This document shows positions 8,092 to 58,269 of a DNA stretch of 64,000 bases, one piece after another. Position 1 is the first letter of the stretch. Every line of letters begins with the position of its first letter. Where the stretch lies: contig OY820591.1 in NCBI GenBank assembly GCA_963555985.3, positions 2,720,001 to 2,784,000 of the forward strand, read 5' to 3'. The position numbers and the translations under genes were made by a program. The stretch is from Dehalococcoidia bacterium. GTDB taxonomy: Bacteria; Chloroflexota; Dehalococcoidia; Bin125. A model generated the notes under the pieces. That model searched no databases. It saw nothing but the letters and a program-made list of their open reading frames with translations, and had not been told where the DNA came from.

Positions 8092-8891
8092 TCGCGCAGG
8101 CGGTCTCCGCGACCGACGCCGCCATCGCGCTGATGATGCGCGATCTGCGGGCGGTGGCGCGCTCGCGCTCGCAGTTGTACTCGTCGCTGCTGTTCCCGCT
8201 GATGCTGCTGGCGCTGCTCGGCACGGGCGTATCGAGCGGACTGCATCCGACCTCGGAGCGGATTGTGGACGGCGATTACACCTCGTTCCTCGCGCCCGGG
8301 ATGATCGCGATGACGGCGTTGTTCTCCTCCACGTTCTCCAGCGCGGGCTTCTACCGCGACCGTGAGAGCGGGTTGCTGCGGGCGCTGCTGGCGTCGCCGC
8401 ACAGCGCACAGACGATCCTGTTCGGTAAGGCGCTGGGCGCGATCCTGATCGGTTCGCTGCAAGCGCTGGCCGTGCTAGTGCTGGCAGTGGTGATTCCGGG
8501 GATCGATCTGGCCTGGCAATTCGGCTGGCTGGGCGGGGTCGCGGTGGTCGTGGTCACGGTGCTTGGCTTCAACTTCATGCTCTCCGGGATCGCGCTACTG
8601 CTGGCGGTACGGATCAAGACGATGCAGGGCTTTCACCTGGTGATGAACATCGTGCTGATGCCGCTGTTCTTTCTCAGCGGGGCGTTCTTTCCACTTGACG
8701 ACGTTCCCACCTGGTTGCAGGTGATCGCCTACATCAATCCGATTACCTACGCGGTCGATCTGCTGCATTACGCCTCCTACGCGCCGAGCTCGGAGGGTCT
8801 GATCGGGCCGCTGATCGACGGGATCGTGCTGGGGGCGCTGGCGCTTGGCTTGTTTGCGTTCGGCTTGCGCCGCGCGCCCAGCGCGGTGTGA
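8088..8891 (+). CDS. ABC-2 type transporter permease
   Basis: Multi-TM; FLAPGM, FLSGAFFP, NPITYAVD motifs; overlaps the ATPase stop. Confidence 0.9.
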   Translation: MIAQAVSATDAAIALMMRDLRAVARSRSQLYSSLLFPLMLLALLGTGVSSGLHPTSERIVDGDYTSFLAPGMIAMTALFSSTFSSAGFYRDRESGLLRALLASPHSAQTILFGKALGAILIGSLQALAVLVLAVVIPGIDLAWQFGWLGGVAVVVVTVLGFNFMLSGIALLLAVRIKTMQGFHLVMNIVLMPLFFLSGAFFPLDDVPTWLQVIAYINPITYAVDLLHYASYAPSSEGLIGPLIDGIVLGALALGLFAFGLRRAPSAV

Positions 8892-8901
8892 GGCCGCGGC
8901 G

Positions 8902-9759
8902 ATGCGCACGGTTGCAATTTTGGTTCTGGTGGTCGCGATCTGGCTGGCGGCCTGCGGCGGGGACGATGATCGCGTGATTCTCTCGGAGGCGGATGCGCCC
9001 TTTGTGCCGGTGCTGGAGTCGTCGGAGCTCGCAGTCGGGGACTCGCGGATCGTGCTGACGCTGCTGGATCGCGATGCGCAGCCGTCGTTCTCGCCGGAGA
9101 CCACGTTTCGGGCGCGCCTCTTCGAGCCAACCGAAGGCGGTACCCGCTTCCGAACCGAAGTGGAGTTGGAAGCGATCGCGGTTGGCGATGAGACCTATTA
9201 CGTCGGGCGGGGCGTCCCCTTCGATCAGGCGGGGGAGTGGGCATTGGCTGTGACTGCGGCGTTTACGGACGGTTCAGCGCAGAGTTCGCCGCGGCTGCCG
9301 TTCAGGGTTGCCGCTGATTCGAGTGCGCCTGCGGGCGGGGAGGCGGTGCCCGCGCTGCCGACGCCCACGCTTGCCGACGCTCCGATTGAGCGGCTGAGCG
9401 GTGATCCTGAGCCGCTGTTGGCGCTGTACGAACGGTCGGTGGACGAATTACTTGGCAGCGGCGAGCGATTTCTGATCGTGTTCGCTACCTATGACCGTTG
9501 CGCGGGGCGTCCGGTCTGCGCGCGCGCGGTGGAGCAAGCGAAGCGGATCGCCGAAGCGACCGATCTGACGGTGATCCATGTCGAACCGTTCGGGCGGCAG
9601 CAACCGCCGGAGCATCAGGCGATCGTTGATGCGGTGGTGGAGTCGTGGGGGATTCGGGTGGAGCCGTTGTTCTTTGTCGTTGACGGTGCGGGTCTGGTTT
9701 CGAGTCAATTTGCGATTGCGGCGACGGAGACCGAGCTCGGGGCGGCGGTAGAACGCTGA
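8902..9759 (+). CDS. Lipoprotein with C-terminal thioredoxin-like domain
   Basis: Lipobox LAAC; FATYDRCAGRPVC, IHVEP and EPLFFVVD resemble a thioredoxin fold. Confidence 0.7.
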   Translation: MRTVAILVLVVAIWLAACGGDDDRVILSEADAPFVPVLESSELAVGDSRIVLTLLDRDAQPSFSPETTFRARLFEPTEGGTRFRTEVELEAIAVGDETYYVGRGVPFDQAGEWALAVTAAFTDGSAQSSPRLPFRVAADSSAPAGGEAVPALPTPTLADAPIERLSGDPEPLLALYERSVDELLGSGERFLIVFATYDRCAGRPVCARAVEQAKRIAEATDLTVIHVEPFGRQQPPEHQAIVDAVVESWGIRVEPLFFVVDGAGLVSSQFAIAATETELGAAVER

Positions 9760-9762
9760 GCG

Positions 9763-10689
9763 CTAGACCAGCACGTCTAGTCCGACGGCGGTGAAGATGA
9801 TGAACAGGTAGAAGATTGAGTAGAAGAACAGGCGCATCGGCTCGGTTTGGCCTCGCCAGACTCTCCAGGCGATCAGGATGAAGACGGCTCCGCTGATGGC
9901 GGCGGTGGTCTCGTAGCACCAGCTGAGGTGGCCTCCGAGCGGGCCGAGCAGGGTGAGCGCGACCAGACCGATCGAGTAGAGCAGGAGTTGGCGGCGGGTC
10001 TCGGCCTCGCCGGCGACGACCGGGAGCATGGGCACATCGGCGCGGGCGTAGTCGTCGCGGTATTTGAGCGCGAGCGCCCAGAAGTGGGGAGGCGTCCACA
10101 TGAAGATGATCAGGAAGAGGATCAGCGGCGTCCAGGTCAGTTCGCCGGTGACGGCGGCCCAGCCGACCAGGGGCGGCATCGCTCCCGCTGCGCCGCCGAT
10201 GACGATGTTCTGGCGAGTCCGGCGTTTGAGCCAGATCGTGTAGACGAGCACGTAGAAGGCGACTGCGGCCTCGGCCAAGAGCGCCGAGAGCAGGTTGACG
10301 GTCAAGGCGAGCTGGACTCCGCCTAGGGCGGCGAGAAGCAAGCCCCAGACCAGCGCGTGCCAGGGCTGCAAGAGGCCGGCGGGGAGCGGGCGAGCGGCGG
10401 TGCGCTCCATCAGGCTGTCGATGTCGCGGTCGAACCATTGATTGAGGGTGTTGGCGCCGCCGGCGGTGAGAATGCCGCCTAAGAGTGTGAGCGCGATCAG
10501 ATCGAGCCCCGGCCAGCCGTCGGCGGCGACGACCATCGTGGGCAGCGTCGTGATCAGCAGCAGTTGGATGATGCCGGGCTTCATCAAGTCCCAGAACGCG
10601 CGCGCGGTGACCCACCAGGCACGCCAGGGCGCAGCGTGCGTTCGGATGGATGCGCCGCTCGCGCTGCTGCGGATGGCCCGTTCAGTCAT
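9763..10689 (-). CDS. ctaB: Protoheme IX farnesyltransferase (heme o synthase)
   Basis: NQWFDRDIDSLMERT, LKRRT, WTPPHFWALA. Confidence 0.95.
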   Translation of the reverse strand: MTERAIRSSASGASIRTHAAPWRAWWVTARAFWDLMKPGIIQLLLITTLPTMVVAADGWPGLDLIALTLLGGILTAGGANTLNQWFDRDIDSLMERTAARPLPAGLLQPWHALVWGLLLAALGGVQLALTVNLLSALLAEAAVAFYVLVYTIWLKRRTRQNIVIGGAAGAMPPLVGWAAVTGELTWTPLILFLIIFMWTPPHFWALALKYRDDYARADVPMLPVVAGEAETRRQLLLYSIGLVALTLLGPLGGHLSWCYETTAAISGAVFILIAWRVWRGQTEPMRLFFYSIFYLFIIFTAVGLDVLV

Positions 10690-11728
10690 ACTGCGTTTCG
10701 CCTTTGCCGCTCAGTATCGCGTCCGGTGGCGTTTCAAGCTCTTCGGTCGCCGAGTCCTGCTCAGTCGCGCGATAGAGGGCAACTGCGGCGGCGGCGGCGA
10801 TCAGCGTCCAGGTGAGCGCGCCGGCGGACAAATGCAGCGCTCTCAGCCAAGCGTCGAACTCGAGCCGGATCATCTCTGCGCCCAGCACGATCTGGCCCAG
10901 AAAGAGCGCCGCGCCTGCGTGCGTGAACATGGTTGTCGCCCGTGAGCGCGGTCGCAGCATGACCACGCCCAGCGACGCCGCAAAGACCGCCGCTCCCGCT
11001 GCCACGACCAGCAGGCGATGCGACATATTCCAACGTGCATAGGTGCCGACCGGCCAGAGGTCGCCGTGGCACAAGGGCCACTGCCGCCAACAGGCGCCGC
11101 CGCCGGGGCCGACATGCGCTCCCGCCTCCGGCTTGACATCGATGTGGGTGACATATGAACCGATCACCACTACTACCAGCATCAAGACGGCCGCCGTGAG
11201 CGCCAAACCAGCAAAACGCCGCGCCTGCGAGGCGGAGTTGACTCCCAGCCGAGCCTGCTCGGACGAGGGCGTCCAACCCCACTCGAACATGCCCAGCCAG
11301 GAGGCGGTCATCAGCATCGTGATCAGCATCGCGGTGGCCAGATGCGCGGTCACGATCTCGTCTTCGAGCCGCTCGGTCACGGTCAGGCCGCCGAGAATGA
11401 CCTGCACCGCGAGCAGCGCGACCGCCAGCGCGGCCGGCAGCCAGACGCGCGTCCGCTGCCGCCAACGGCGCAGCGTGTAGATGGCGAAGCCGATGATCAC
11501 AAAGCCCATCAGCATCGCTACCAGGCGGTGAGTCCACTCCAGCCAGACTTGGTAGGGCGCGTGCTCGCCAAAGTCGCCGCTCGGGAAGACGCGGCCGTAG
11601 CAGCCCGGCCAATCGGGACAGGCGAGGCCGGAATCGGTCACACGCACGACTCCGCCCAGCGTCGTCAACGCCAGCAGGCCAACGATGATCCCCAGTCCCA
11701 GCCACTGCGCGCGCGTCATCGATAACAT
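10682..11728 (-). CDS. ctaA: Heme A synthase
   Basis: GGVVRVTDSGLACPDWPGC, EWTHR, second Cys pair and HR; start moved to the MLSMT methionines. Confidence 0.92.
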   Translation of the reverse strand: MLSMTRAQWLGLGIIVGLLALTTLGGVVRVTDSGLACPDWPGCYGRVFPSGDFGEHAPYQVWLEWTHRLVAMLMGFVIIGFAIYTLRRWRQRTRVWLPAALAVALLAVQVILGGLTVTERLEDEIVTAHLATAMLITMLMTASWLGMFEWGWTPSSEQARLGVNSASQARRFAGLALTAAVLMLVVVVIGSYVTHIDVKPEAGAHVGPGGGACWRQWPLCHGDLWPVGTYARWNMSHRLLVVAAGAAVFAASLGVVMLRPRSRATTMFTHAGAALFLGQIVLGAEMIRLEFDAWLRALHLSAGALTWTLIAAAAAVALYRATEQDSATEELETPPDAILSGKGETQYD

Positions 11729-31478: not shown

Positions 31479-32744
31479 TTAGTCCCCTACTGTCATGCGG
31501 CCGCGTTTGGCGTTTTCTTTGCGGAGGCCGCTGAGGGTGAGGGTGTTGCTCTTGATGCGGTTGCAGGGGGCGCAGAGGAGGAGGCGGTTGCTGATGTGGT
31601 TGAGGCCGCCGTCGGATCTGGGGGTGTTGTGGTCTAGTTCGAGGTAGAGGGGGTCGTCGAATTCTCGGTCGCAGCCGGCGCAGATCACGCCGTTCTCCTC
31701 GATCAGCGTGTCGACCATCTGTTGGCGTGTCATCTTGGGTCCGGGCGGCTCTTTGCTTCGCCTCTTCTTGGTTTTGAGGATTGGGGCGGCGGTCTCGCCG
31801 TCGTCGTTGCGGACGGGGGCTACGGTGCTGTAGCCGATCTGTCCGAAGGTGAGCAGTTGACCGCCGCTGTCGCCGTCCGGCGCGGCTAGCCCCTCTTTCT
31901 GCAAGCGATCGATCACCGTCTGGTGCGCCTTCTCCCAGATATCCATTCCGATCCACTGTCGTTCTGAGCGTTCCGCTGCAACAGGTGTAGTGGCGCAACC
32001 GCAGAATGGATCGAGCACGAGATCGCCCGGATTGCTAGAGGCGCGAATGATGCGTTCGTAGAGCGCGAGCGGTTTCTGGGTGGGATAGCCCATGCGCTCT
32101 TTGGCCATGTTATTGAGCGAGGGGATGTCGCTCCACACATCGAGCATTCCCTTTTGCTTGCCGGCCATCAGTTGGCTTGTCGCCGCCACTTTGGGCTTAT
32201 CGAAGACATAGGAGGCCGACTTGGAGTAGAACAGAATCACGTCGTGCTTACGCGAGTAGTACTTCGGAGAGCTGCCACCCAGTCCATACGTCCAGATGAT
32301 CTCGTTGATAAATCGCGCTCGCCCGAAGATGGCGTCGAGTAGGGACTTGAGGTAGTGGCTGGCGGTTGGGTCGCAGTGGAGGTAGAGGCTGCCGTCGTCG
32401 CGGAGGACTCGGTGCATTTCGAGCAGGCGGACACCCAGCCAGCAGAGGAAGGCGGCCATGTCTTCGCCGGCGGCGGCTCGGGCGGCTTCGATTACTTGCC
32501 AGACGGCGGGCCAGTCGTCCTGGATGGCGTCGACCCAGTCCTGGTGGACGTCTTTGTCCCAGCTCCAGCGGTCTTCGAACTTGGCGCCGGCGGCGAGGGA
32601 GTCGGGGGTGGCGTGGAAGTCGCGGCCTTTGTTGAAGGGCGGGTCGGTGGCTATGAGGTGGATGGTGTTGGAGTTGAGGCCTCGGAGGAAGGGGAGGTTG
32701 TCGCCGTGGAAGAGGGTTCGGTTGGTGAAGTTGGGGGTGGTCAT
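31479..32744 (-). CDS. Beta-class N6/N4 DNA methyltransferase fused to HNH endonuclease (#1)
   Basis: DPPF, YPTQKP, DPFCGC; C-terminal CxxC...LELDH...GG...N...CxxCN. Confidence 0.92.
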   Translation of the reverse strand: MTTPNFTNRTLFHGDNLPFLRGLNSNTIHLIATDPPFNKGRDFHATPDSLAAGAKFEDRWSWDKDVHQDWVDAIQDDWPAVWQVIEAARAAAGEDMAAFLCWLGVRLLEMHRVLRDDGSLYLHCDPTASHYLKSLLDAIFGRARFINEIIWTYGLGGSSPKYYSRKHDVILFYSKSASYVFDKPKVAATSQLMAGKQKGMLDVWSDIPSLNNMAKERMGYPTQKPLALYERIIRASSNPGDLVLDPFCGCATTPVAAERSERQWIGMDIWEKAHQTVIDRLQKEGLAAPDGDSGGQLLTFGQIGYSTVAPVRNDDGETAAPILKTKKRRSKEPPGPKMTRQQMVDTLIEENGVICAGCDREFDDPLYLELDHNTPRSDGGLNHISNRLLLCAPCNRIKSNTLTLSGLRKENAKRGRMTVGD

Positions 32745-32831
32745 GCTTCATATGTTCGCGTGGGTTGGGGTGGTTTGGCAAGTGGGCGGGGGGCGGCTGT
32801 GTGCTGGGCTGACGTTCGTGCTCGACTCGGC

Positions 32832-32915
32832 GAGATACCCGCGACGGAGCGCGGGTATGACGGAGTTTCTTTGGGGGAGAAGGGGAATGGATTCCCGCGT
32901 GCGCGGGAATGACGG
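32832..32915. repeat. REP cluster (family A plus ATTCCC-N8-GGGAAT family B)
   Basis: GAGATACCCGCGacggaGCGCGGGTATGAC; GATTCCCGCGTGCGCGGGAATGAC. Confidence 0.85.
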
Positions 32916-32953
32916 ACGGGGATGGGGGGATTCGGCTGAGGGGGGGTAGGCGG

Positions 32954-34015
32954 CTAGGGGGTGTCTGGCTGGGGTTGTTGGCGGAGAGGGAGTTGGAAGA
33001 GCCAGAGGAATAGCAGGCCCAGGATTGAGATCGGGATGAGCACTAGCCCGTGCAGGGTTGCGGCGTAGGCGATTGCGGCTTCTTCTGCGGCTTCTGGGCC
33101 TACTGCTCCGAGGGTGGGCAGCCAGATTAGTAGCACGGCTTTGGTTGCCCACTCGAACGGTCCTACTCCGCCTGAGGTGGAGGGGGCGGTGATGAGTAGG
33201 TTCGCTCCGGCTGCGACGAGTAGATAGACGACGAAGGGCAGGCCCAATCCGAAGGCTTTGCCGACCATCCAGTACATCACCGCTTCGAGGCCCCAGGCGA
33301 GGAAGCTGGCGACCAGCGCGCCGATGACTTGGCGGCGGTTCGCCTGGGCGGACATGCCGACGATCACGGGTTGCAGCCATGACCACTGGCGCCCGCGCTG
33401 TCCAGGCAGGCGGCGGAGGAGGTTGCGGGCGATCCGTTCGGCGTCGCGGGGACGGCGCGCGACCGCTCCGAAGACGAGGAAGGCTCCGATGATGCCGAAG
33501 ATGAGGAAGCCCATCGCGGCGGTCAAGGCGTCGCCGGCGTAGGTCATGCCGTCCAATCCGACCAGGCTCGCGCCGACTCCGGCGCAGAGGAAGAGGGTCA
33601 GCATGAGGCCGTCGTAGACGCGAGTCATGAAGATGCTGGAGAGTCCGGACAGGCGCGAGATTGCGTGACGCTGGTAGAGGACGTGGGCGCGGACCAGCTC
33701 GCCCGCGCGGAGCGGGAGCACGTTGTTGACGCCGAAGCCGATGGCGACGATCGGGAACAGCCGCCACCAGGCAATGGTTTCGATGTGCAGGAGGAGGTAG
33801 TGCCAGCGCCAGGCGCGGGCGGCGACGCCGGCGAAGTAGACGCCCAGGGCGGGGGCGATCCACCAGGCAGAGACTTCGGTGAAGGCTCGTCCCACCTGTG
33901 CGAAGTCGGTATGGCGCAGGAAGAGGACGATGAAGACGGTGCTGCCGCCTACGCCCAAGAGGGCGCGCGCTGTCCGACCCGTCGCCCAGGGCGGAGGGCG
34001 CAGACTCCGCCGCAC
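32954..34015 (-). CDS. Lysylphosphatidylglycerol synthase TM / flippase-like protein
   Basis: RAWRWH, NNVLPLRAGELVR, PSTSGGVGPFE. Confidence 0.88.
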   Translation of the reverse strand: MRRSLRPPPWATGRTARALLGVGGSTVFIVLFLRHTDFAQVGRAFTEVSAWWIAPALGVYFAGVAARAWRWHYLLLHIETIAWWRLFPIVAIGFGVNNVLPLRAGELVRAHVLYQRHAISRLSGLSSIFMTRVYDGLMLTLFLCAGVGASLVGLDGMTYAGDALTAAMGFLIFGIIGAFLVFGAVARRPRDAERIARNLLRRLPGQRGRQWSWLQPVIVGMSAQANRRQVIGALVASFLAWGLEAVMYWMVGKAFGLGLPFVVYLLVAAGANLLITAPSTSGGVGPFEWATKAVLLIWLPTLGAVGPEAAEEAAIAYAATLHGLVLIPISILGLLFLWLFQLPLRQQPQPDTP

Positions 34016-34018
34016 GGT

Positions 34019-35011
34019 TCAGCTCACTTCGATCCGTCGCGGCGGCAGCCGCAGGCTCTCGCGCGCCCAGACCAGGGCGCGGCGTTTCCAGTTGAGCCAT
34101 TGGCGGCGGCGCTGGGCCCAGGAGAGACGGGCCAAGCGGACGCCTTCGACGATCCCCATGGCGATCGCGGCCACAATCGCGCCGGCGATGATGTCGGCTA
34201 GGTAGTGCTCTCCGAGGTACATCAGGGCGAACGCGAGCGCGGCAGAGTAGAGCAGCGCAATTGCCACCAGCCAGCGGGAGCGGACGAGCAGCCCGACTCC
34301 CACGACGACGAACGAGGCGGCGAAGTGGAGCGAGGGCATCGCGGCGGTCGGGTTCGGCTCGGCCATGGTCTCGAACGCCCAGGCGTAGAAGCTCTCGCCC
34401 AGGAGCGCGGGGCCGACGCCGTTCATCACGCGGACGATCCCGTCCACCATGCCTTGCCCGGCGGCCATCCAGGGCGGCGCGGTGGGCACGGTGAAGTAGA
34501 GCAAGGCGCCGAGCATGAAGGTGCTCGCCACGATCAGGGTTACCCGCCAGGCGTACTTGCGCGCGAAGAGCCAGACTCCGACCACGGCTGCGTGGGGGAA
34601 GACGAACCAAGTCCAGTGGATCACGGCCGAGGCGTAGGCGGCGATGCCCGGATCGGAGCCGGTACCGCCGATCCGGGCCTGGAGCCAGGCCGAGGGCGTG
34701 GCGCCGGCGAACATCCACAGTTCCCAGTCGAGGACGTAGGCGGTGAGTGTGCGCAGTCCGGTTTCGTCGGCGGCGTCGCGGAGTTGGATGAAGAAGCCCA
34801 TCGTGATGATGTAGGCGGCGAGCGGTCCCCATTCGCCCCAACCGCGCGCGAGCAGGAACCCGGCGACGATCGCCAGGCCTGCGAGCGGAGCAAAGATGAC
34901 CGCGTCGAGATCGACGGTCTGACGCAGTACGACCGCGAGCACACCCGCAGCCAGCAATGACCAACAACCGAACCGCAACTCGCTTCGCACTGCCTGCTTC
35001 GCCTTCCTCAC
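34019..35011 (-). CDS. PAP2-family phosphatase/phosphotransferase (Aur1/IPC-synthase-like)
   Basis: PTAPPW, AAMPSLH, HYLADI. Confidence 0.85.
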   Translation of the reverse strand: MRKAKQAVRSELRFGCWSLLAAGVLAVVLRQTVDLDAVIFAPLAGLAIVAGFLLARGWGEWGPLAAYIITMGFFIQLRDAADETGLRTLTAYVLDWELWMFAGATPSAWLQARIGGTGSDPGIAAYASAVIHWTWFVFPHAAVVGVWLFARKYAWRVTLIVASTFMLGALLYFTVPTAPPWMAAGQGMVDGIVRVMNGVGPALLGESFYAWAFETMAEPNPTAAMPSLHFAASFVVVGVGLLVRSRWLVAIALLYSAALAFALMYLGEHYLADIIAGAIVAAIAMGIVEGVRLARLSWAQRRRQWLNWKRRALVWARESLRLPPRRIEVS

Positions 35012-53061: not shown

Positions 53062-53177
53062 GTCCGGGCCGCAATGCCCGGCGGAATTCGCCGCCCCGCC
53101 ACGTACTGTCAGATCCGCAAGCGCCGTTAGGCTATCTGGGATGGCCAGAGATCACGTTGGACACTGAGGAGCCCACG

Positions 53178-54185
53178 ATGACCCGACGCATTGGCATGGG
53201 ATTCGACTGGCAAGGCTCGATGAACCGCGAGACGGCGCTCAAGCGCGCTCAGATCGCCGACGAGGTCGGGATCGACTCGCTCTGGGTCGCGGAGGCCTGG
53301 GGGCAGGATGCCTTCACCACGCTCGTCCAGCTCGCGGAACGGACGCAGAGCGTTCAGGTCGGCACGAGCATCGTCAACATCTACTCGCGCACCCCGGCCG
53401 CGCTGGCGCAACACTTCGCCACCATCGACGAACTCTCCGAAGGCCGCGTGATCGTCGGTTTGGGCAACAGCGGGCCGCTCGTGATCGAGCACTTTCACGG
53501 CGTGCCTTTCCAGCCCGCCTTCAAGCGGATGCGCGAGACCGTCGAGATCATGAAGATCCTGTTCTCCGGTCAGCGCCTCAACTACGACGGCGACATTTTC
53601 AAGCTCCAGCGCGGCTTCACCCTGCGCTTCGACACCTACCGCAAGCAGGTGCCGATCTACCTGGCGACGCTCAACCCCAAGTCGGTCAGGATGACCGCCG
53701 AGATCTCCGACGGCTGGCTGCCGGTGATGATTCCGCTTGACCGGCTGGCGGAGGAGATCGGCCAAGTCAACCAGTGGGTGGTCGAAGCGGGTAAAGACCC
53801 GGCTGACTTCACCGTCCGCGCGCCGGGCGGCGTCACCGTCGCCAATACTCCCGAAGCCAAGGGCCGCGCCCGCGCCGCCCAAGCCGGCACGCTCGCCTTT
53901 TACTGCGCGCGGATGGGCGAGTTCTACTATCGCCAACTCTCGCGTCAGGGCTACGAAGACGAAGCCAACGCCGTCCGCATCGCCTGGCAGGACGGCGGCG
54001 GCGCAGCCGGCGCTCAGGCGATCCCCGAGGACATGCTGCTCCAGTTCGGTTTCGTCGGCACGACCGAAGAGTGCGTCGAACGTCTGGAACAGGAGCAGGC
54101 CGCCGGCGCGCTGCTGCACTCGGTCAACGTGATGGAGCAGGACCCCAACGAGTTCGGGAAGATTCTCGAAGCGCTCAAGGGCTAA
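53178..54185 (+). CDS. LLM class flavin/F420-dependent oxidoreductase
   Basis: WVAEAWG, RTPA, GLGNSGP. Confidence 0.9.
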   Translation: MTRRIGMGFDWQGSMNRETALKRAQIADEVGIDSLWVAEAWGQDAFTTLVQLAERTQSVQVGTSIVNIYSRTPAALAQHFATIDELSEGRVIVGLGNSGPLVIEHFHGVPFQPAFKRMRETVEIMKILFSGQRLNYDGDIFKLQRGFTLRFDTYRKQVPIYLATLNPKSVRMTAEISDGWLPVMIPLDRLAEEIGQVNQWVVEAGKDPADFTVRAPGGVTVANTPEAKGRARAAQAGTLAFYCARMGEFYYRQLSRQGYEDEANAVRIAWQDGGGAAGAQAIPEDMLLQFGFVGTTEECVERLEQEQAAGALLHSVNVMEQDPNEFGKILEALKG

Positions 54186-54218
54186 GGTGGAACCAGCGAC
54201 GGCGCTGGAGTCCCCACA

Positions 54219-55673
54219 ATGGCCGATCCCAACTGGGCCAACCGCACCATCTGGACTGCCGACAACCTCGATGTCATGCGCGGCATGAACTCGGAGTCGG
54301 TGGATCTGATCTATCTGGATCCGCCCTTCAACAGCAACCGGGACTACGCCGCCCCGATTGGCTCCGCCGCCGCCGAAGCTGCCTTCAAAGACACTTGGAC
54401 GCTCAGCGACGTAGATCTCGCCTGGCACGGCGAGATCGCAGAATCGAATCCGGACCTCTACGGCATCGTCGACGCTGCCGGACTCGGCCACAGCAAGCCG
54501 ATGAAGGCCTACCTGATCATGATGATCGTGCGCCTGGTCGAGATGCGCCGCATCCTCAAGCCGAACGGCAGCATCTACTTGCACTGCGATCCGACCGCCA
54601 ACGCCTGGTTGACCGCGGCCATGGATTGCGTTTTCGGACAGGAGCAGTTCCAGCAAGTCATCATCTGGAAACGCACATCAGCGCACAACGACCGGCTCTT
54701 CGGCAGTGTCTGCGACACCATCCTCTACTACGCCCGCGAAGGCGCAACGCAAAACCTGGACCACATCCGCGTCCCCTTGGATCGGGACTACGTAGACAGC
54801 TTCTACCGTCACGAGGACGAACGCGGACGATATCGAGCGGGCGATCTCACGGCAGCCGGTGAACGGACAGGCGAGTCGGGCGAGCCGTGGCGCGGTATCG
54901 ACCCAACCGAAGTGAGCCGCCACTGGGCGGTACCGCGCACCGGCGCATACGCCGACTACATTGTCCGCTTCCTGCCGGACTATCTCGAAATCGAAAGTTC
55001 GCTGGCCCGTCTCGATACCTTGGACGAGGCCGGTTTCATTCATTGGCCAGCGGAGCCGGGTGGCGTCCCTCAGCTCAAGCGCTACCTCGACGCTTCACCC
55101 GGTCAGATCCCGGGCAATCTCTGGGACGACATCCCGCCACTGGGCGCGCGTGCCAAGGAACGGGTCGGCTATCCCACTCAGAAACCGCTCCGTTTGCTGG
55201 AGCGGATCATCCTCGCTTCCTCCAACCCGGGTGATGTCGTGCTCGATCCGTTCTGCGGCTGTGCGACCGCCTGCGTCGCCGCCGAGAAGCTGGACCGTCA
55301 GTGGGCCGGGATTGACCTCTCACCCGTCGCGCACGCGCTGGCGCACACACGCTTTCAGAACGAGTTGGGACTCACCTCTTTCAGCGTCACGCATCGCAGC
55401 GACATCCCCCAACGCACCGATTTGGGCGTCCTGCCCTCTTACAAGACGCATAAGCACACCCTCTACGGCAGGCAGGAGGGACTCTGCACCGGTTGCAACA
55501 CGCTCTTCCCCTTCCGCAATATGACGATTGTCCACATCCTCGCCCGCTCGCGCGGGGGCAGCGATCACTTCGACAACCTGCAACTGCTCTGCAACGCCTG
55601 CAACTCGCTCAAGGGCGCGAACTCGCAGGAGTGGTTCGTGGCCGAACTGCTCCAGCGCGGGATTCGCAACTGA
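54219..55673 (+). CDS. Beta-class DNA methyltransferase-HNH fusion (#2)
   Basis: DPPF, YPTQKP, DPFCGC; C-terminal CxxC..VH..GG..N..CxxCN. Confidence 0.92.
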   Translation: MADPNWANRTIWTADNLDVMRGMNSESVDLIYLDPPFNSNRDYAAPIGSAAAEAAFKDTWTLSDVDLAWHGEIAESNPDLYGIVDAAGLGHSKPMKAYLIMMIVRLVEMRRILKPNGSIYLHCDPTANAWLTAAMDCVFGQEQFQQVIIWKRTSAHNDRLFGSVCDTILYYAREGATQNLDHIRVPLDRDYVDSFYRHEDERGRYRAGDLTAAGERTGESGEPWRGIDPTEVSRHWAVPRTGAYADYIVRFLPDYLEIESSLARLDTLDEAGFIHWPAEPGGVPQLKRYLDASPGQIPGNLWDDIPPLGARAKERVGYPTQKPLRLLERIILASSNPGDVVLDPFCGCATACVAAEKLDRQWAGIDLSPVAHALAHTRFQNELGLTSFSVTHRSDIPQRTDLGVLPSYKTHKHTLYGRQEGLCTGCNTLFPFRNMTIVHILARSRGGSDHFDNLQLLCNACNSLKGANSQEWFVAELLQRGIRN

Positions 55674-55719
55674 CGGCTAGGGTGAGAGCAACCGGCGACT
55701 GAGGTGGGAAGGCGTCGCG

Positions 55720-57168
55720 ATGGCAGATCCCAACTGGGCCAACCGCACCATCTGGACTGCCGACAACCTCGATGTCATGCGCGGCATGAACAGCGAGTCG
55801 GTGGATCTGATCTATCTGGATCTACCCTTCAACACCAATCGGGATTACGAAGCGCCAATCGGCAGCGAAGCTGCGGGCGCTGCGTTTAAGGACACTTGGA
55901 CGCTCAGCGACGTCGACGAAGCCTGGCATGGTGAAGTCGCTGAGCGTCAACCGGGCGTCTACGCCGCCTGCGACGCAGCAGGCGCGATCCATGGCTCGCC
56001 CATGAAGGCGTATCTCATCTACATGGGCGTTCGCCTCCTGGAGATGCGCCGCCTGCTCAAGCCCACCGGCAGCATCTATCTCCACTGCGATCCCACTGCC
56101 GGCCACTACCTCAAGATGCTGTTGGACGCCGTCTTCGGACAAGCGAATTTTCGCAACGAGATCGTCTGGAAGCGGACAAACCACTCGAAAGGCACCGGCG
56201 ATGCCGATCGGACCTTCGGCTCTGTCACCGATTCGATCTTTTTCTACACGATGAGCGGCTCTTACGACTTGCACCCACGCGACGAAGAGCGAATCCCCGG
56301 CCCTCCGCGAAACGGCGAGTACGACGACGAGCAAGGGCGCCGTTATCGCTCCGGCCCGCTTGATGCGGAAGGAACGCGGGAGGGTACCTCCGGCCAGCCC
56401 TGGCGCGATACCGATCCAACATCCGTCGGACGGCACTGGGCTGTGCCCGGCCGGGACAAGATGCCGGATTGGGTTGAGCTCCCGGACGAGTATGAAGACC
56501 TGTCCACGCAAGAGAAGCTCGACGTACTCAATGCAGCCGGCATGATTCACTGGCCGCGCCGCAGAGGCGGCAAACCCCGTTTTCGTCTCTACGCAGATGT
56601 CGATGATCGGCTCAAGAGCCTATGGGACGACATCAACCGGGCAGGCGGCTCGGAACGAACCGGCTACCGAACCCAGAAGCCGCTGAAGCTGCTCAAGCGA
56701 ATCATCGGGGCGTCGTCCAACGAAGGTGAGGTCGTGCTCGATCCGTTCTGCGGTTGCGCTACTGCTTGTGTCGCTGCTGAGGACCTGGGCCGGCAATGGG
56801 TTGGCATCGACTTGTCGGAGATGGCCGACCAGCTCGTGCGATCGCGATTTCGGCGCGAACTCGGCCTCACCTCGTTCACTGTTACGCATCGCAGCGACAT
56901 CCCCCAACGCACCGATTTGGGCGTCCTGCCCTCTTACAAGACGCACAAGCACACGCTCTACGGCAGGCAGGAGGGACTTTGCGCCGGTTGCAACACGCTC
57001 TTCCCCTTCCGCAATATGACGATTGTCCATATCATCGCCCGCTCGCGCGGGGGCAGCGATCACTTCGACAACCTGCAACTGCTCTGCAACGCCTGCAACT
57101 CGCTCAAGGGCGCGAACTCGCAGGAGTGGTTCGTGGCCGAACTGCTCGAGCGCGGGATTCGCAACTGA
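55720..57168 (+). CDS. Beta-class DNA methyltransferase-HNH fusion (#3), motif IV reads DLPF
   Basis: Paralog of #2; DLPF, YRTQKP, DPFCGC, HNH. Confidence 0.9.
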   Translation: MADPNWANRTIWTADNLDVMRGMNSESVDLIYLDLPFNTNRDYEAPIGSEAAGAAFKDTWTLSDVDEAWHGEVAERQPGVYAACDAAGAIHGSPMKAYLIYMGVRLLEMRRLLKPTGSIYLHCDPTAGHYLKMLLDAVFGQANFRNEIVWKRTNHSKGTGDADRTFGSVTDSIFFYTMSGSYDLHPRDEERIPGPPRNGEYDDEQGRRYRSGPLDAEGTREGTSGQPWRDTDPTSVGRHWAVPGRDKMPDWVELPDEYEDLSTQEKLDVLNAAGMIHWPRRRGGKPRFRLYADVDDRLKSLWDDINRAGGSERTGYRTQKPLKLLKRIIGASSNEGEVVLDPFCGCATACVAAEDLGRQWVGIDLSEMADQLVRSRFRRELGLTSFTVTHRSDIPQRTDLGVLPSYKTHKHTLYGRQEGLCAGCNTLFPFRNMTIVHIIARSRGGSDHFDNLQLLCNACNSLKGANSQEWFVAELLERGIRN

Positions 57169-57171
57169 CGG

Positions 57172-58269
57172 CTAGGCCGCCCATTCGATCCACCAGCCGT
57201 GCGGCGACGACTTCGCCAGCAACTGACGCTCGTACCGACCATCCACGAAGCGCGTGATTGCGAGCTGCGGGTCTTTGGTGTCGGCGATGTCGTCGAGGTA
57301 GAGCTCCAGCGTGACCAGCCAGAGCGGACGCTCGCGGCTGGTGTGTGCGAGTGTCTGCATCAGCCGTTGCCGGCCTTCGGCGGGGAACTGGTAGAGCGCG
57401 ACGGTGGAGTAGACCGTCAGCGCAGCGTCGGCCGGGGTTTCGGCGATCATCTGCGGAAGCAGCTCAACTGCGTCTCCGGCTCGGAGATCGACGGGTGAGG
57501 CCGACAACTCCGCGGCGCTGTCGATTAGACGTTGATGGCGCTCGACGTGTTCGGGCCAGATCAGGGCGCGGAGCCAGCGCAACTCTTCGGGATCGGTGAG
57601 GTCGATCGGATTGAGATCGATCCCGCCCCGGAACCAGACCATGAGCTCATCGGCCAGCGGCGGCAACTCACCCGCGCCGCGCAGTTCCGCCTCTAGCGAC
57701 ACTCGCGCATCCTCGCGGCCCCAGGACGCGGTTTCGTGGCCGCCGCGCAGGTAGCGATAGCGGTAGCGGTCGACGTTGAGGTTGAGTCCGGCGCTGGCGC
57801 CGACGTCGATCAGAGCGAGCGGACGGCCCGACTCGGCCTGCACGATGGAGAAGGTGGGCAGCAGGCAGGTGCAGCGGCGGACTACGTTGGTCTGGGTGCG
57901 ATGGGTGCGGATCAGGTCGATGATCTGCTCGCGGTAGGTGAGGCAGAAGTCGCGGAAGTGGGGGAAGGCGGGCGTCATGGGACGCTCTGCGCCTGCGACG
58001 ATCGGATAGTGGGCCGCGAGTGGGTGCTTCGCGTATTCGCCGCCGCTGAGGAGCAGGTATTGGACGGCGGCGAAGAACATGTTGGGCGCGGGTTGGCGGC
58101 GGCGCTTTTGGGCGGCGATGGCGAGCAACTCGGGATCGAGTGAGACCCCGTAGGCGAGTTCGGCGTACATCGGCGAGGCGAGCCCGGGCGTCTCGATCCG
58201 GGCGAAGCGGTGGAAGACGTCGCGGTAGTGCGCCGCGGTTGGCGCATCGATGCCGTCTCGCTGCGTCAT
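57172..58269 (-). CDS. DUF2332 family protein
   Basis: TQTNVVRR, GASAGLNL, GIDLNP, WPEH, PHGWW. Confidence 0.85.
   Translation of the reverse strand: MTQRDGIDAPTAAHYRDVFHRFARIETPGLASPMYAELAYGVSLDPELLAIAAQKRRRQPAPNMFFAAVQYLLLSGGEYAKHPLAAHYPIVAGAERPMTPAFPHFRDFCLTYREQIIDLIRTHRTQTNVVRRCTCLLPTFSIVQAESGRPLALIDVGASAGLNLNVDRYRYRYLRGGHETASWGREDARVSLEAELRGAGELPPLADELMVWFRGGIDLNPIDLTDPEELRWLRALIWPEHVERHQRLIDSAAELSASPVDLRAGDAVELLPQMIAETPADAALTVYSTVALYQFPAEGRQRLMQTLAHTSRERPLWLVTLELYLDDIADTKDPQLAITRFVDGRYERQLLAKSSPHGWWIEWAA

Follow-up and report, generated by a model that had tools for sequence, protein, structure and literature searches.

Two adjacent DNA methylase-HNH genes with near-identical ends and diverged cores in a Dehalococcoidia bacterium

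Introduction

The modification (Mod) proteins of Type III restriction-modification (RM) systems, for example EcoP15I Mod (PDB 4zcf), show the motif order of beta-class DNA methylases and have a central target recognition domain (TRD). The same arrangement is found in two adjacent genes, A and B, of a Dehalococcoidia bacterium (GTDB lineage Bacteria; Chloroflexota; Dehalococcoidia; Bin125). These genes lie in a stretch of 64,000 nucleotides (nt) of contig OY820591.1 (assembly GCA_963555985.3, positions 2,720,001 to 2,784,000 of the forward strand), which as a whole is called the window below and supplies the position numbers used here. Type III systems possess an adjacent res gene encoding a superfamily 2 (SF2) helicase with a PD-(D/E)xK nuclease, whereas the neighbours of A and B are a Bac_luciferase gene and a DUF2332 gene. 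A and B furthermore differ from Mod by an HNH domain fused to their C-terminus. In Type III mod genes of Helicobacter pylori, TRDs were found to move from gene to gene through homologous recombination within the conserved DNA that codes for motifs, and trees of the TRD and non-TRD parts of these genes disagree (Furuta & Kobayashi 2012, PMC3467074). As far as it is described there, this movement is resembled by the tree disagreement and the flank/core mosaics of the methylase-HNH family to which A and B belong. Simple-sequence repeats that could serve phase variation were looked for in A and B and none were found.

Nuclease and methylase also share one chain in the Type IIG/IIL/IIC enzymes (MmeI, BpuSI), which have one recognition domain and a stand-alone gene, as is the case here. 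These enzymes combine a gamma-class methylase with an N-terminal PD-(D/E)xK nuclease, whereas the methylase-HNH family, known here from its sequences, is beta-class and has a C-terminal HNH domain. Solitary N6-adenine methylases (M.BceJIV, PDB 9c3u/8urk; M.MboIIA; CcrM; M.RsrI) have a DPPF/Y motif IV in common with A, but they lack the TRD insert of ~160 residues and the HNH domain, and their sequence match to A is restricted to residues ~280-380. Zinc-bound HNH nucleases (phage HNH endonucleases, PMC3592412; IscB/Cas9 HNH) display the [CxxC]2 site and the H-N-N pattern that are also seen in A and B. In the latter two, however, the HNH domain is fused behind a methylase and Val replaces the Asp before the catalytic His. 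IS1595 transposons carry relatives of A, but the A/B locus has no transposase, and terminal inverted repeats were looked for around it and not found. A literature search, with REBASE and subscription journals outside its reach, yielded no paper on a beta-methylase-HNH fusion.

The reading preferred here, with a probability of roughly 0.6, is that A and B are two core-type alleles of a mobile Type-III-Mod-like methylase with a zinc-bound HNH domain, that the tandem has undergone gene conversion, that B is chimeric and that the nuclease is probably dead.

Homogenised ends of genes A and B

Genes A and B are on the same strand and their proteins share 330/493 residues (67%, BLASTP). Both polypeptides unite a methylase and a nuclease domain according to Pfam, namely N6_N4_Mtase (PF01555) at residues 28-374 in each (128.0 and 124.3 bits for A and B; cut-off 26.7) and HNH/HNH_5 (PF01844/PF14279) at about residues 421-474 (37-44 bits; cut-offs 21.4 and 27.5). 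A preliminary description, made from the letters of the window, had noted two adjacent genes with near-identical ends and a diverged core, and nucleotide alignment bore this out. Nucleotides 1-72 of the coding sequences (CDS) differ by 1 mismatch, nt 1-105 are identical at 99/105 positions, the last 285 nt show 7 mismatches (97.5% identity) and the 8 nt 3' of the stop codons are the same in both genes. The middle is identical at 615/1023 nt (60%) with 36 further gap columns, and the 35 nt 5' of the start codons at just 24/35, with 6 gaps. Calculated with the gene-wide A/B mismatch rate of 0.296, the binomial probability of the tracts is 1e-34 for the 3' end and 4e-15 for the 5' end.

A related genome harbours a single A-type gene at the same site (L013/L169), with 90% amino acid identity to A. 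This ortholog is 68-92% identical to A along the whole gene and is equally distant from the ends of B and of A. Since it diverges over the very tracts in which A and B agree, purifying constraint does not explain the identity of the A/B ends. Over the last 285 nt A and B are 98% identical to each other, while either of them is 82% identical to the A-type ortholog and 73-75% identical to three B-type orthologs, the values for B being 74-75%. In the HNH segment, the synonymous divergence of A from B amounts to 0.07; it reaches 0.8-2.6 in the other segments, and A differs from its ortholog by 0.85-1.09. These ortholog identities and synonymous divergences indicate that the ends of A and B were homogenised recently, within the lineage of this genome, and that the 3' 285 nt of B are A-derived. 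Gene conversion has thus put the HNH end of A behind the B-type core of B, and gene B is a chimera, whose first 72 nt are shared with A.

The 5' tract is followed by the same serine codon in both genes, written TCG in A (54291-54293) and AGC in B (55792-55794), thus with three differences. Because the AGC of B also occurs in two B-type orthologs, conversion at the 5' end probably did not reach beyond nt 72. A contig of the 3' part of B from sequencing run X4 differs from the window at two sites solely, 57030 and 57034, and carries the states of A at both, which hints that the conversion tracts still vary within the population.

Core types of A and B

Seven proteins from other assemblies match the B core (residues 40-398) at 80-91% identity (the protein P0064 at 91%); after these seven, identity drops to 57% or less, with A at 57%. 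In a tree of the core, for which 31 rows were chosen from about 215 sequences, A groups with its ortholog and the protein P0002 (support 100), and B lies inside a B-type clade of 10 rows (support 100). Forcing an A+B clade on the core costs 404 log-likelihood units and was rejected by the approximately unbiased (AU) test (p = 1.2e-6). The tree of the HNH segment disagrees with this, as it joins A and B as sisters (support 96) and places the A-type ortholog beside them. At the site itself, the A-type gene of L013/L169 and single B-type genes in L050/L147, L163 and L166 were found, so that both types occur at exactly the same site in two other genera. The middles of A and B thus belong to two old lineages.

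These results bear on several statements of the preliminary description. Separate trees for core and HNH segment were indeed incongruent, and the proposal of recombination in conserved flanks is borne out by this incongruence, by the A-derived 3' end of B and by the recurrence of mosaics in the family (see below). The A/B cores did not diverge after a local duplication, as each core is an old lineage found singly at the site in relatives.

Structure and target recognition domain

The motif order of A is that of a circularly permuted beta-class methylase, with DPPF at residues 34-37, GYPTQKP at 317-323 and DPFCGCATA at 343-351, in agreement with the model topology and with the beta-class fold matches. 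The AlphaFold2 (AF2) model of A has a mean predicted local distance difference test (pLDDT) score of 89.6 and a predicted template modelling (pTM) score of 0.85, and the loop after motif IV (residues 39-60) is its sole poorly predicted part. A Foldseek search with this model returned EcoP15I Mod first (E 3e-16), followed by M.BceJIV, M.MboIIA and M.RsrI. The small methylases align with the catalytic core of the model and leave residues ~152-312 of A as an insert. Between A and B, residues 146-312 are 45% identical, compared to 77% for residues 1-145, which hold motifs IV-VIII. The variable middle (~152-312, from motif VIII to GY(P/R)TQKP) is therefore supported as an inserted TRD by model and alignment. 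The TRD had been expected to extend from motif IV to YxTQKP; the diverged middle stands, but the predicted TRD is narrower than that. By sequence, the closest PDB chains are the N6-adenine methylases M.BceJIV, MboIIA, CcrM and RsrI (E 3e-19 to 3e-11); because the closest solved chains are of this type, and in view of DPPF, N6-adenine methylation by A is suggested.

Database models are less specific. PADLOC returned generic MTase_II/MTase_III models only, with MTase_III models matching both genes (E down to 2e-30), and an NCBIfam scan of A and B gave generic methylase models or matches below cut-offs only, among them weak matches of the HNH to IscB/Cas9d HNH.

Catalytic residues

Catalytic positions were compared in 122 aligned sequences, i.e. 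the 120 listed relatives (A and B included) plus the paralogs P3 and P4 of this genome. The catalytic His and both Asn of the HNH domain (incl. N462) are present in all 122, and the four zinc Cys (C423/C426 and C458/C461, two CxxC pairs) in 121-122, A and B being among them in each case. The residue before the catalytic His is Asp in 120/122 and Val in A and B only, so this acidic residue is missing in both genes. A contig of run X2 reads through the Val438 codon of A with no mismatch. In motif IV, D34, P36 and F/Y37 occur in 122/122, and the first Pro of DPPF in 121/122, the Leu of B being the only deviation. Motif IV is thus intact in A (DPPF) and not in B (DLPF). All three B-type orthologs read CCG at codon 35, and the same-site orthologs carry DH and DPPF (the L013 ortholog of A has D). 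In a larger alignment of 149 rows, H439, N453 and D34/P36/F37 are invariant.

An Asp of this kind binds metal in T4 endonuclease VII and I-HmuI. D839 of Cas9 is counted among the catalytic residues of its HNH domain (PMC10063541), and a review gives the motif of BrxU as DH-N-N-D (PMC12707154). With the role of the 'DH' Asp taken from Cas9, BrxU and these metal-bound nucleases, the Val at this position makes it probable that the HNH nuclease is disabled in both A and B. The loss of Asp may have been spread by conversion or may be older than it. Active restriction by A and B is doubtful because the HNH Asp is lost in both and B has DLPF in addition.

Insertion site between the oxidoreductase and DUF2332 genes

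The coordinates of the locus are listed in Table 1. The stop codon of the oxidoreductase gene lies within the microhomology GGGCTAAGG, and the stop codon of the DUF2332 gene is found 3 nt past that of B, inside GGCTAGGCC (reverse). The A-B joint has the structure expected for a tandem joined via an 8-nt microhomology, GGCTARGG. Since the short spacer in front of A has no promoter-like site, A may be co-transcribed with the oxidoreductase gene; across the A/B locus neither a promoter-like site nor a convincing terminator was found. The GC content of the locus is unremarkable (0.63-0.64, against 0.62-0.685 across the window).

Table 1 Features of the A/B locus; positions refer to the window
Feature	Position	Strand	Description
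Oxidoreductase gene, left flank	53157..54185	+	luciferase-like (LLM-type); Pfam Bac_luciferase 233.7 bits
Spacer 5' of gene A	54186..54218	+	33 nt
Gene A	54219..55673	+	484 aa; beta-class N6/N4 DNA methylase with C-terminal HNH; A-type core
5' homogenised tract of A	54219..54290	+	72 nt, 1 mismatch to B
Motif IV of A	54318..54329	+	D-P-P-F, residues 34-37, intact (122-sequence alignment)
Predicted TRD of A	54672..55154	+	residues ~152-312; least conserved family segment; between motif VIII strand and motif X in the model
Motif I of A	55245..55271	+	DPFCGCATA, family-typical variant of FxGxG
3' homogenised tract of A	55389..55684	+	last 285 nt of CDS (linker and HNH) plus junction TGACGGCTAGG
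Codon of Val438 of A	55530..55532	+	GTC, HNH 'DH' aspartate position
A-B spacer	55674..55719	+	TGACGGCTAGG, then diverged copy of left spacer (GTGAGAGCAACC...)
Gene B	55720..57168	+	482 aa; methylase-HNH; chimera with B-type core
Codon of Leu35 of B	55822..55824	+	CTA, motif IV DLPF for DPPF
Predicted TRD of B	56173..56649	+	residues ~152-310; from A/B and ortholog alignments
Codon of Val436 of B	57025..57027	+	GTC, HNH 'DH' aspartate position
DUF2332 gene, right flank	57172..58269	-	convergent; Pfam DUF2332 325 bits

The site was surveyed in 51 loci, consisting of this genome and 50 further genomes of the same family with oxidoreductase orthologs at >=75% identity, over 6 kb downstream of the oxidoreductase gene. 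It is empty (<150 bp) in 16 of the 51 loci and holds 150-500 bp in 8. One methylase-HNH gene is present in 4 loci (one A-type, three B-type) and the tandem in 1, this genome only. A DUF4041-T5orf172/MUG113 gene of ~450 amino acids occupies the site in 7 loci, other inserts (DUF5615/PIN-like, DUF433-like, an aminotransferase, unknowns) are found in 11, and the occupant could not be resolved in the remaining 4. With so many different occupants, this intergenic region between two convergent housekeeping genes is a hot spot of insertion.

The seven loci with the DUF4041 plus T5orf172/MUG113 (GIY-YIG-like) gene are L142, L144, L146, L153, L155, L157 and L165. In L153, L155 and L157 a copy of the 3' end of the DUF2332 gene directly follows the oxidoreductase stop codon and precedes the insert, which suggests that the DUF4041-T5orf172 gene inserted there with target duplication.

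The methylase-HNH family

The suggestion of a compact family of beta-class methylases with a C-terminal HNH domain was confirmed, as all 120 proteins among the matches listed, A and B included, carry PF01555 plus HNH, at 59-86% identity. In the protein search with A all 8000 of 8000 scored candidates matched at E<=1e-10, so that the family comprises at least 8000 members, counted as clusters at 90% identity. A search of representatives with the HNH tail gave 5498, 625 and 12 matches at E <= 1e-3, 1e-10 and 1e-30, many of them fragments. Species-representative genomes contained 135 relatives, of which 78 loci were kept. The 78 loci stem from metagenome-assembled genomes (MAGs) which, by record titles, belong to Dehalococcoidia, other Chloroflexota, Poribacteria, Latescibacterota, Acidimicrobiales, Alphaproteobacteria, Thermodesulfobacteriota and one Nitrosopumilaceae archaeon.

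Segment 146-312 is the least conserved in the family (mean pairwise identity 0.44, against 0.76, 0.68 and 0.64 elsewhere). Flank and core identity correlate weakly across the family (r = 0.35). Mosaics with flanks >=85% and cores <=60% identical were found in 32 of 11,026 pairs (e.g. 95% vs 38%), and reverse mosaics, with cores alike and flanks unlike, in 3 pairs of 11,026. The ratio of nonsynonymous to synonymous divergence (dN/dS) between orthologs is 0.03-0.15 in all segments. The nuclease module also appears to be swapped within the family: in a relative with 55% identity to the B core (P0210) a C-terminal Mrr_cat / NA-iREase1-like PD-(D/E)xK domain replaces HNH, and two relatives lack a nuclease domain.

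A partner gene shared between taxa was looked for around the 78 loci and not found, and the 25 most recurrent neighbour clusters include no helicase partner. A GmrSD-type enzyme is directly upstream in 11/78 loci, all Dehalococcoidia, and a Type ISP enzyme is located ~3.5 kb away in 12/78 loci, from Poribacteria. An IS1595 transposase lies within 5 kb in 10/78 loci, the archaeal locus included. One Chloroflexota MAG harbours three copies, at 99.9-100% identity, of a 3.2-kb IS1595 element (L044, L045 and L046, positions 8515-11710 in each) that consists of the transposase and a frameshifted methylase-HNH gene, the relative being 56% identical to A. The whole genome studied here gave 0 matches to the IS1595 transposase profile PF12762 and 0 to the L044 transposase.

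This 3.3-Mb genome contains seven further open reading frames (ORFs) aligning with A into the HNH region, one of which has a near-copy on the main contig. Methylase-HNH near-copies also occur on three small contigs, one of them frameshifted, and about eight larger beta-class methylases without HNH are present. In the widely separated paralogs P8 and P9, identity is 95-100% over the first 100 codons and 40-70% thereafter.

A third methylase-HNH gene in the window (31482-32744, minus strand) belongs to a shorter subfamily (421 amino acids, N6_N4_Mtase 153 bits plus HNH). Its first ~100 codons are 95-100% identical in DNA to those of a paralog (C10:12057-13349, C1:1855712-1857001) and its core 40-70%. 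Directly upstream lies an ORF of 739 amino acids without Pfam match (32751-34967, minus strand). Another near-tandem pair, P3/P4 (C1:1662108-1665568), lies outside the window and has frames of 462 and 491 amino acids ~600 bp apart. Its ends, unlike those of A/B, are not homogenised (72-78% identity), and the small contig C7 carries a frameshifted near-copy of one of its genes. Several methylase genes on the small contigs C2, C7 and C10 nearly duplicate genes of the main contig (e.g. C2:1350-2990 and C1:3066706-3068346); these may be either repeated mobile elements or unresolved strain variants.

Proposed explanation and alternatives

In the mechanism proposed for the family, one polypeptide would read its site via the central insert, methylate it, and nick or cut unmodified DNA with HNH. 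Exchange of this single recognition insert would retarget methylation and cutting together, without self-restriction. With both activities depending on one insert, cores could then pass freely from one set of conserved flanks to another, a model that fits the rampant mosaicism as well as the strict conservation of both catalytic sets. At this locus, the two core types lie in tandem at the hot spot, joined via the 8-nt microhomology, and recent gene conversion has produced the near-identical first 72 nt and last 285 nt and hence the chimeric B. As for activity, A is most likely a solitary methylase, probably of the N6-adenine type, whereas B may be inert or decaying, and the two genes probably only methylate DNA here, if they are active at all.

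Several points weigh against this explanation or parts of it. The AU test on the 86 protein columns of the HNH segment does not reject a grouping of B with the B-types (p = 0.11), and conversion is therefore argued from the nucleotide comparison. The upstream spacer of B matches one B-type at 26/35 and the A-type at 24/31 positions, but these spacers of 23-37 nt are too short and too diverged to decide the origin of the tandem; two alleles joined and a duplication followed by core replacement both fit. Under either origin B is recombinant, its A-like ends enclosing a core from elsewhere. A comparison of the HNH segments of A and its ortholog gives a dN/dS of 0.09, without sign of long relaxed constraint, and the Asp-to-Val change would therefore be recent or tolerated. 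Some HNH enzymes, moreover, may bind metal differently. An impaired B methylase is deduced from the conservation of the Pro that became Leu, and for the cutting of unmethylated DNA by intact members architecture and genomic context are the grounds.

The alternative that deserves most attention, although it is unlikely, is that the tandem A+B is ancestral to these genera and that the single and empty loci are deletions via the conserved ends. The occurrence of A-type and B-type genes at exactly this site in two other genera agrees with it, and the directly repeated ends would be good deletion substrates. A contig of run X4 that joins 54224 to 55726, from A upstream into the B core with 1501 nt skipped, could be such a deletion, but it is indistinguishable from an assembler path through the repeat. 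A gene in just 5/51 loci and unrelated inserts at the same site fit repeated gain, and the family is mobile on IS1595 elsewhere. A second contig links position 54190 to 57177 with 8 other letters; this is the empty site of a ~90% relative.

It is rather improbable that A and B are both active single-chain RM enzymes with two specificities, forming a compact defence locus. Both frames are intact, A has all methylase motifs, and neither gene has lost the His, either Asn or either CxxC pair of the HNH domain; purifying selection among orthologs and the defence-type neighbourhoods of relatives point in the same direction. Against this, none of the 120 other relatives shares the Val that stands for the HNH Asp in A and B, B has DLPF, and restriction activity is known for no family member.

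More speculative still, and with little credence attached to it, is the idea that the family is a self-contained, one-chain RM/addiction module that has reached many phyla, including archaea, as IS1595 cargo and by entering intergenic hot spots, that it retargets itself through exchange of one recognition cassette, and that A and B form a heterodimer comparable to the asymmetric dimer of EcoP15I Mod. B, with motif IV dead, would supply a second recognition domain and A the catalysis, gene conversion of the ends would keep the two proteins compatible, and the nuclease would be off to make the new specificity tolerable.

A homing-type selfish element, in which HNH cuts the empty site, repair copies the gene in ('intronless homing') and the methylase protects the carrier, is very improbable. 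Sporadic presence at one precise intergenic site between conserved genes, and the occupation of this site in 7 genomes by a different gene of nuclease type (T5orf172 / GIY-YIG-like), would be expected of it. However, the family occurs at many unrelated sites (78 loci), the IS1595 transposases beside 10 of these are a simpler vehicle, no target site was identified and a variable TRD fits a fixed homing site poorly.

Read evidence consists of Logan contigs, which are broken at repeats, and no listed contig spans the whole A-B locus; most Logan joints at the locus come from homologs of other organisms at 90-95% likeness. As a rough guide, contig depth differs little between A core, B core and flanking genes, with 8.4-11 in run X2, about 4.4-6.5 in X4 and near 2-3 in X3. 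An assembly artefact, with two strain alleles of one locus stitched in tandem, is hardly credible: the assembly is of metagenome type with an estimated contamination of 7.5%, but the locus is on a 3.1-Mb contig, the depths of core and flank do not sum as those of alternative alleles would, and run X1 contains 93% of the sampled 31-mers of the stretch.

Implications

The preliminary description regarded the locus as a candidate for an under-described defence or epigenetic system. Active defence is doubtful here in view of Val for Asp and DLPF, and movement of TRDs by recombination has already been described (PMC3467074). With the mechanism known, what is new are the single-allele and empty orthologous sites proving the chimera, the hot spot and the two disabling substitutions, as read from the alignments. 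The movement of TRDs known from Helicobacter Type III mod genes is thereby extended to uncultured marine Chloroflexota and their neighbours, and to a fused methylase-nuclease. If intact members of the family cut DNA, they would constitute a very common type of one-protein RM system (~480 amino acids) of which no description was found, and their single swappable recognition cassette would make them a compact tool and a natural experiment in the evolution of specificity. The locus brings together alleles joined at a hot spot, sharp-bordered conversion tracts, a chimeric gene and what appear to be the first disabling substitutions, and so illustrates how methylase-HNH genes may be tamed into plain methylases.

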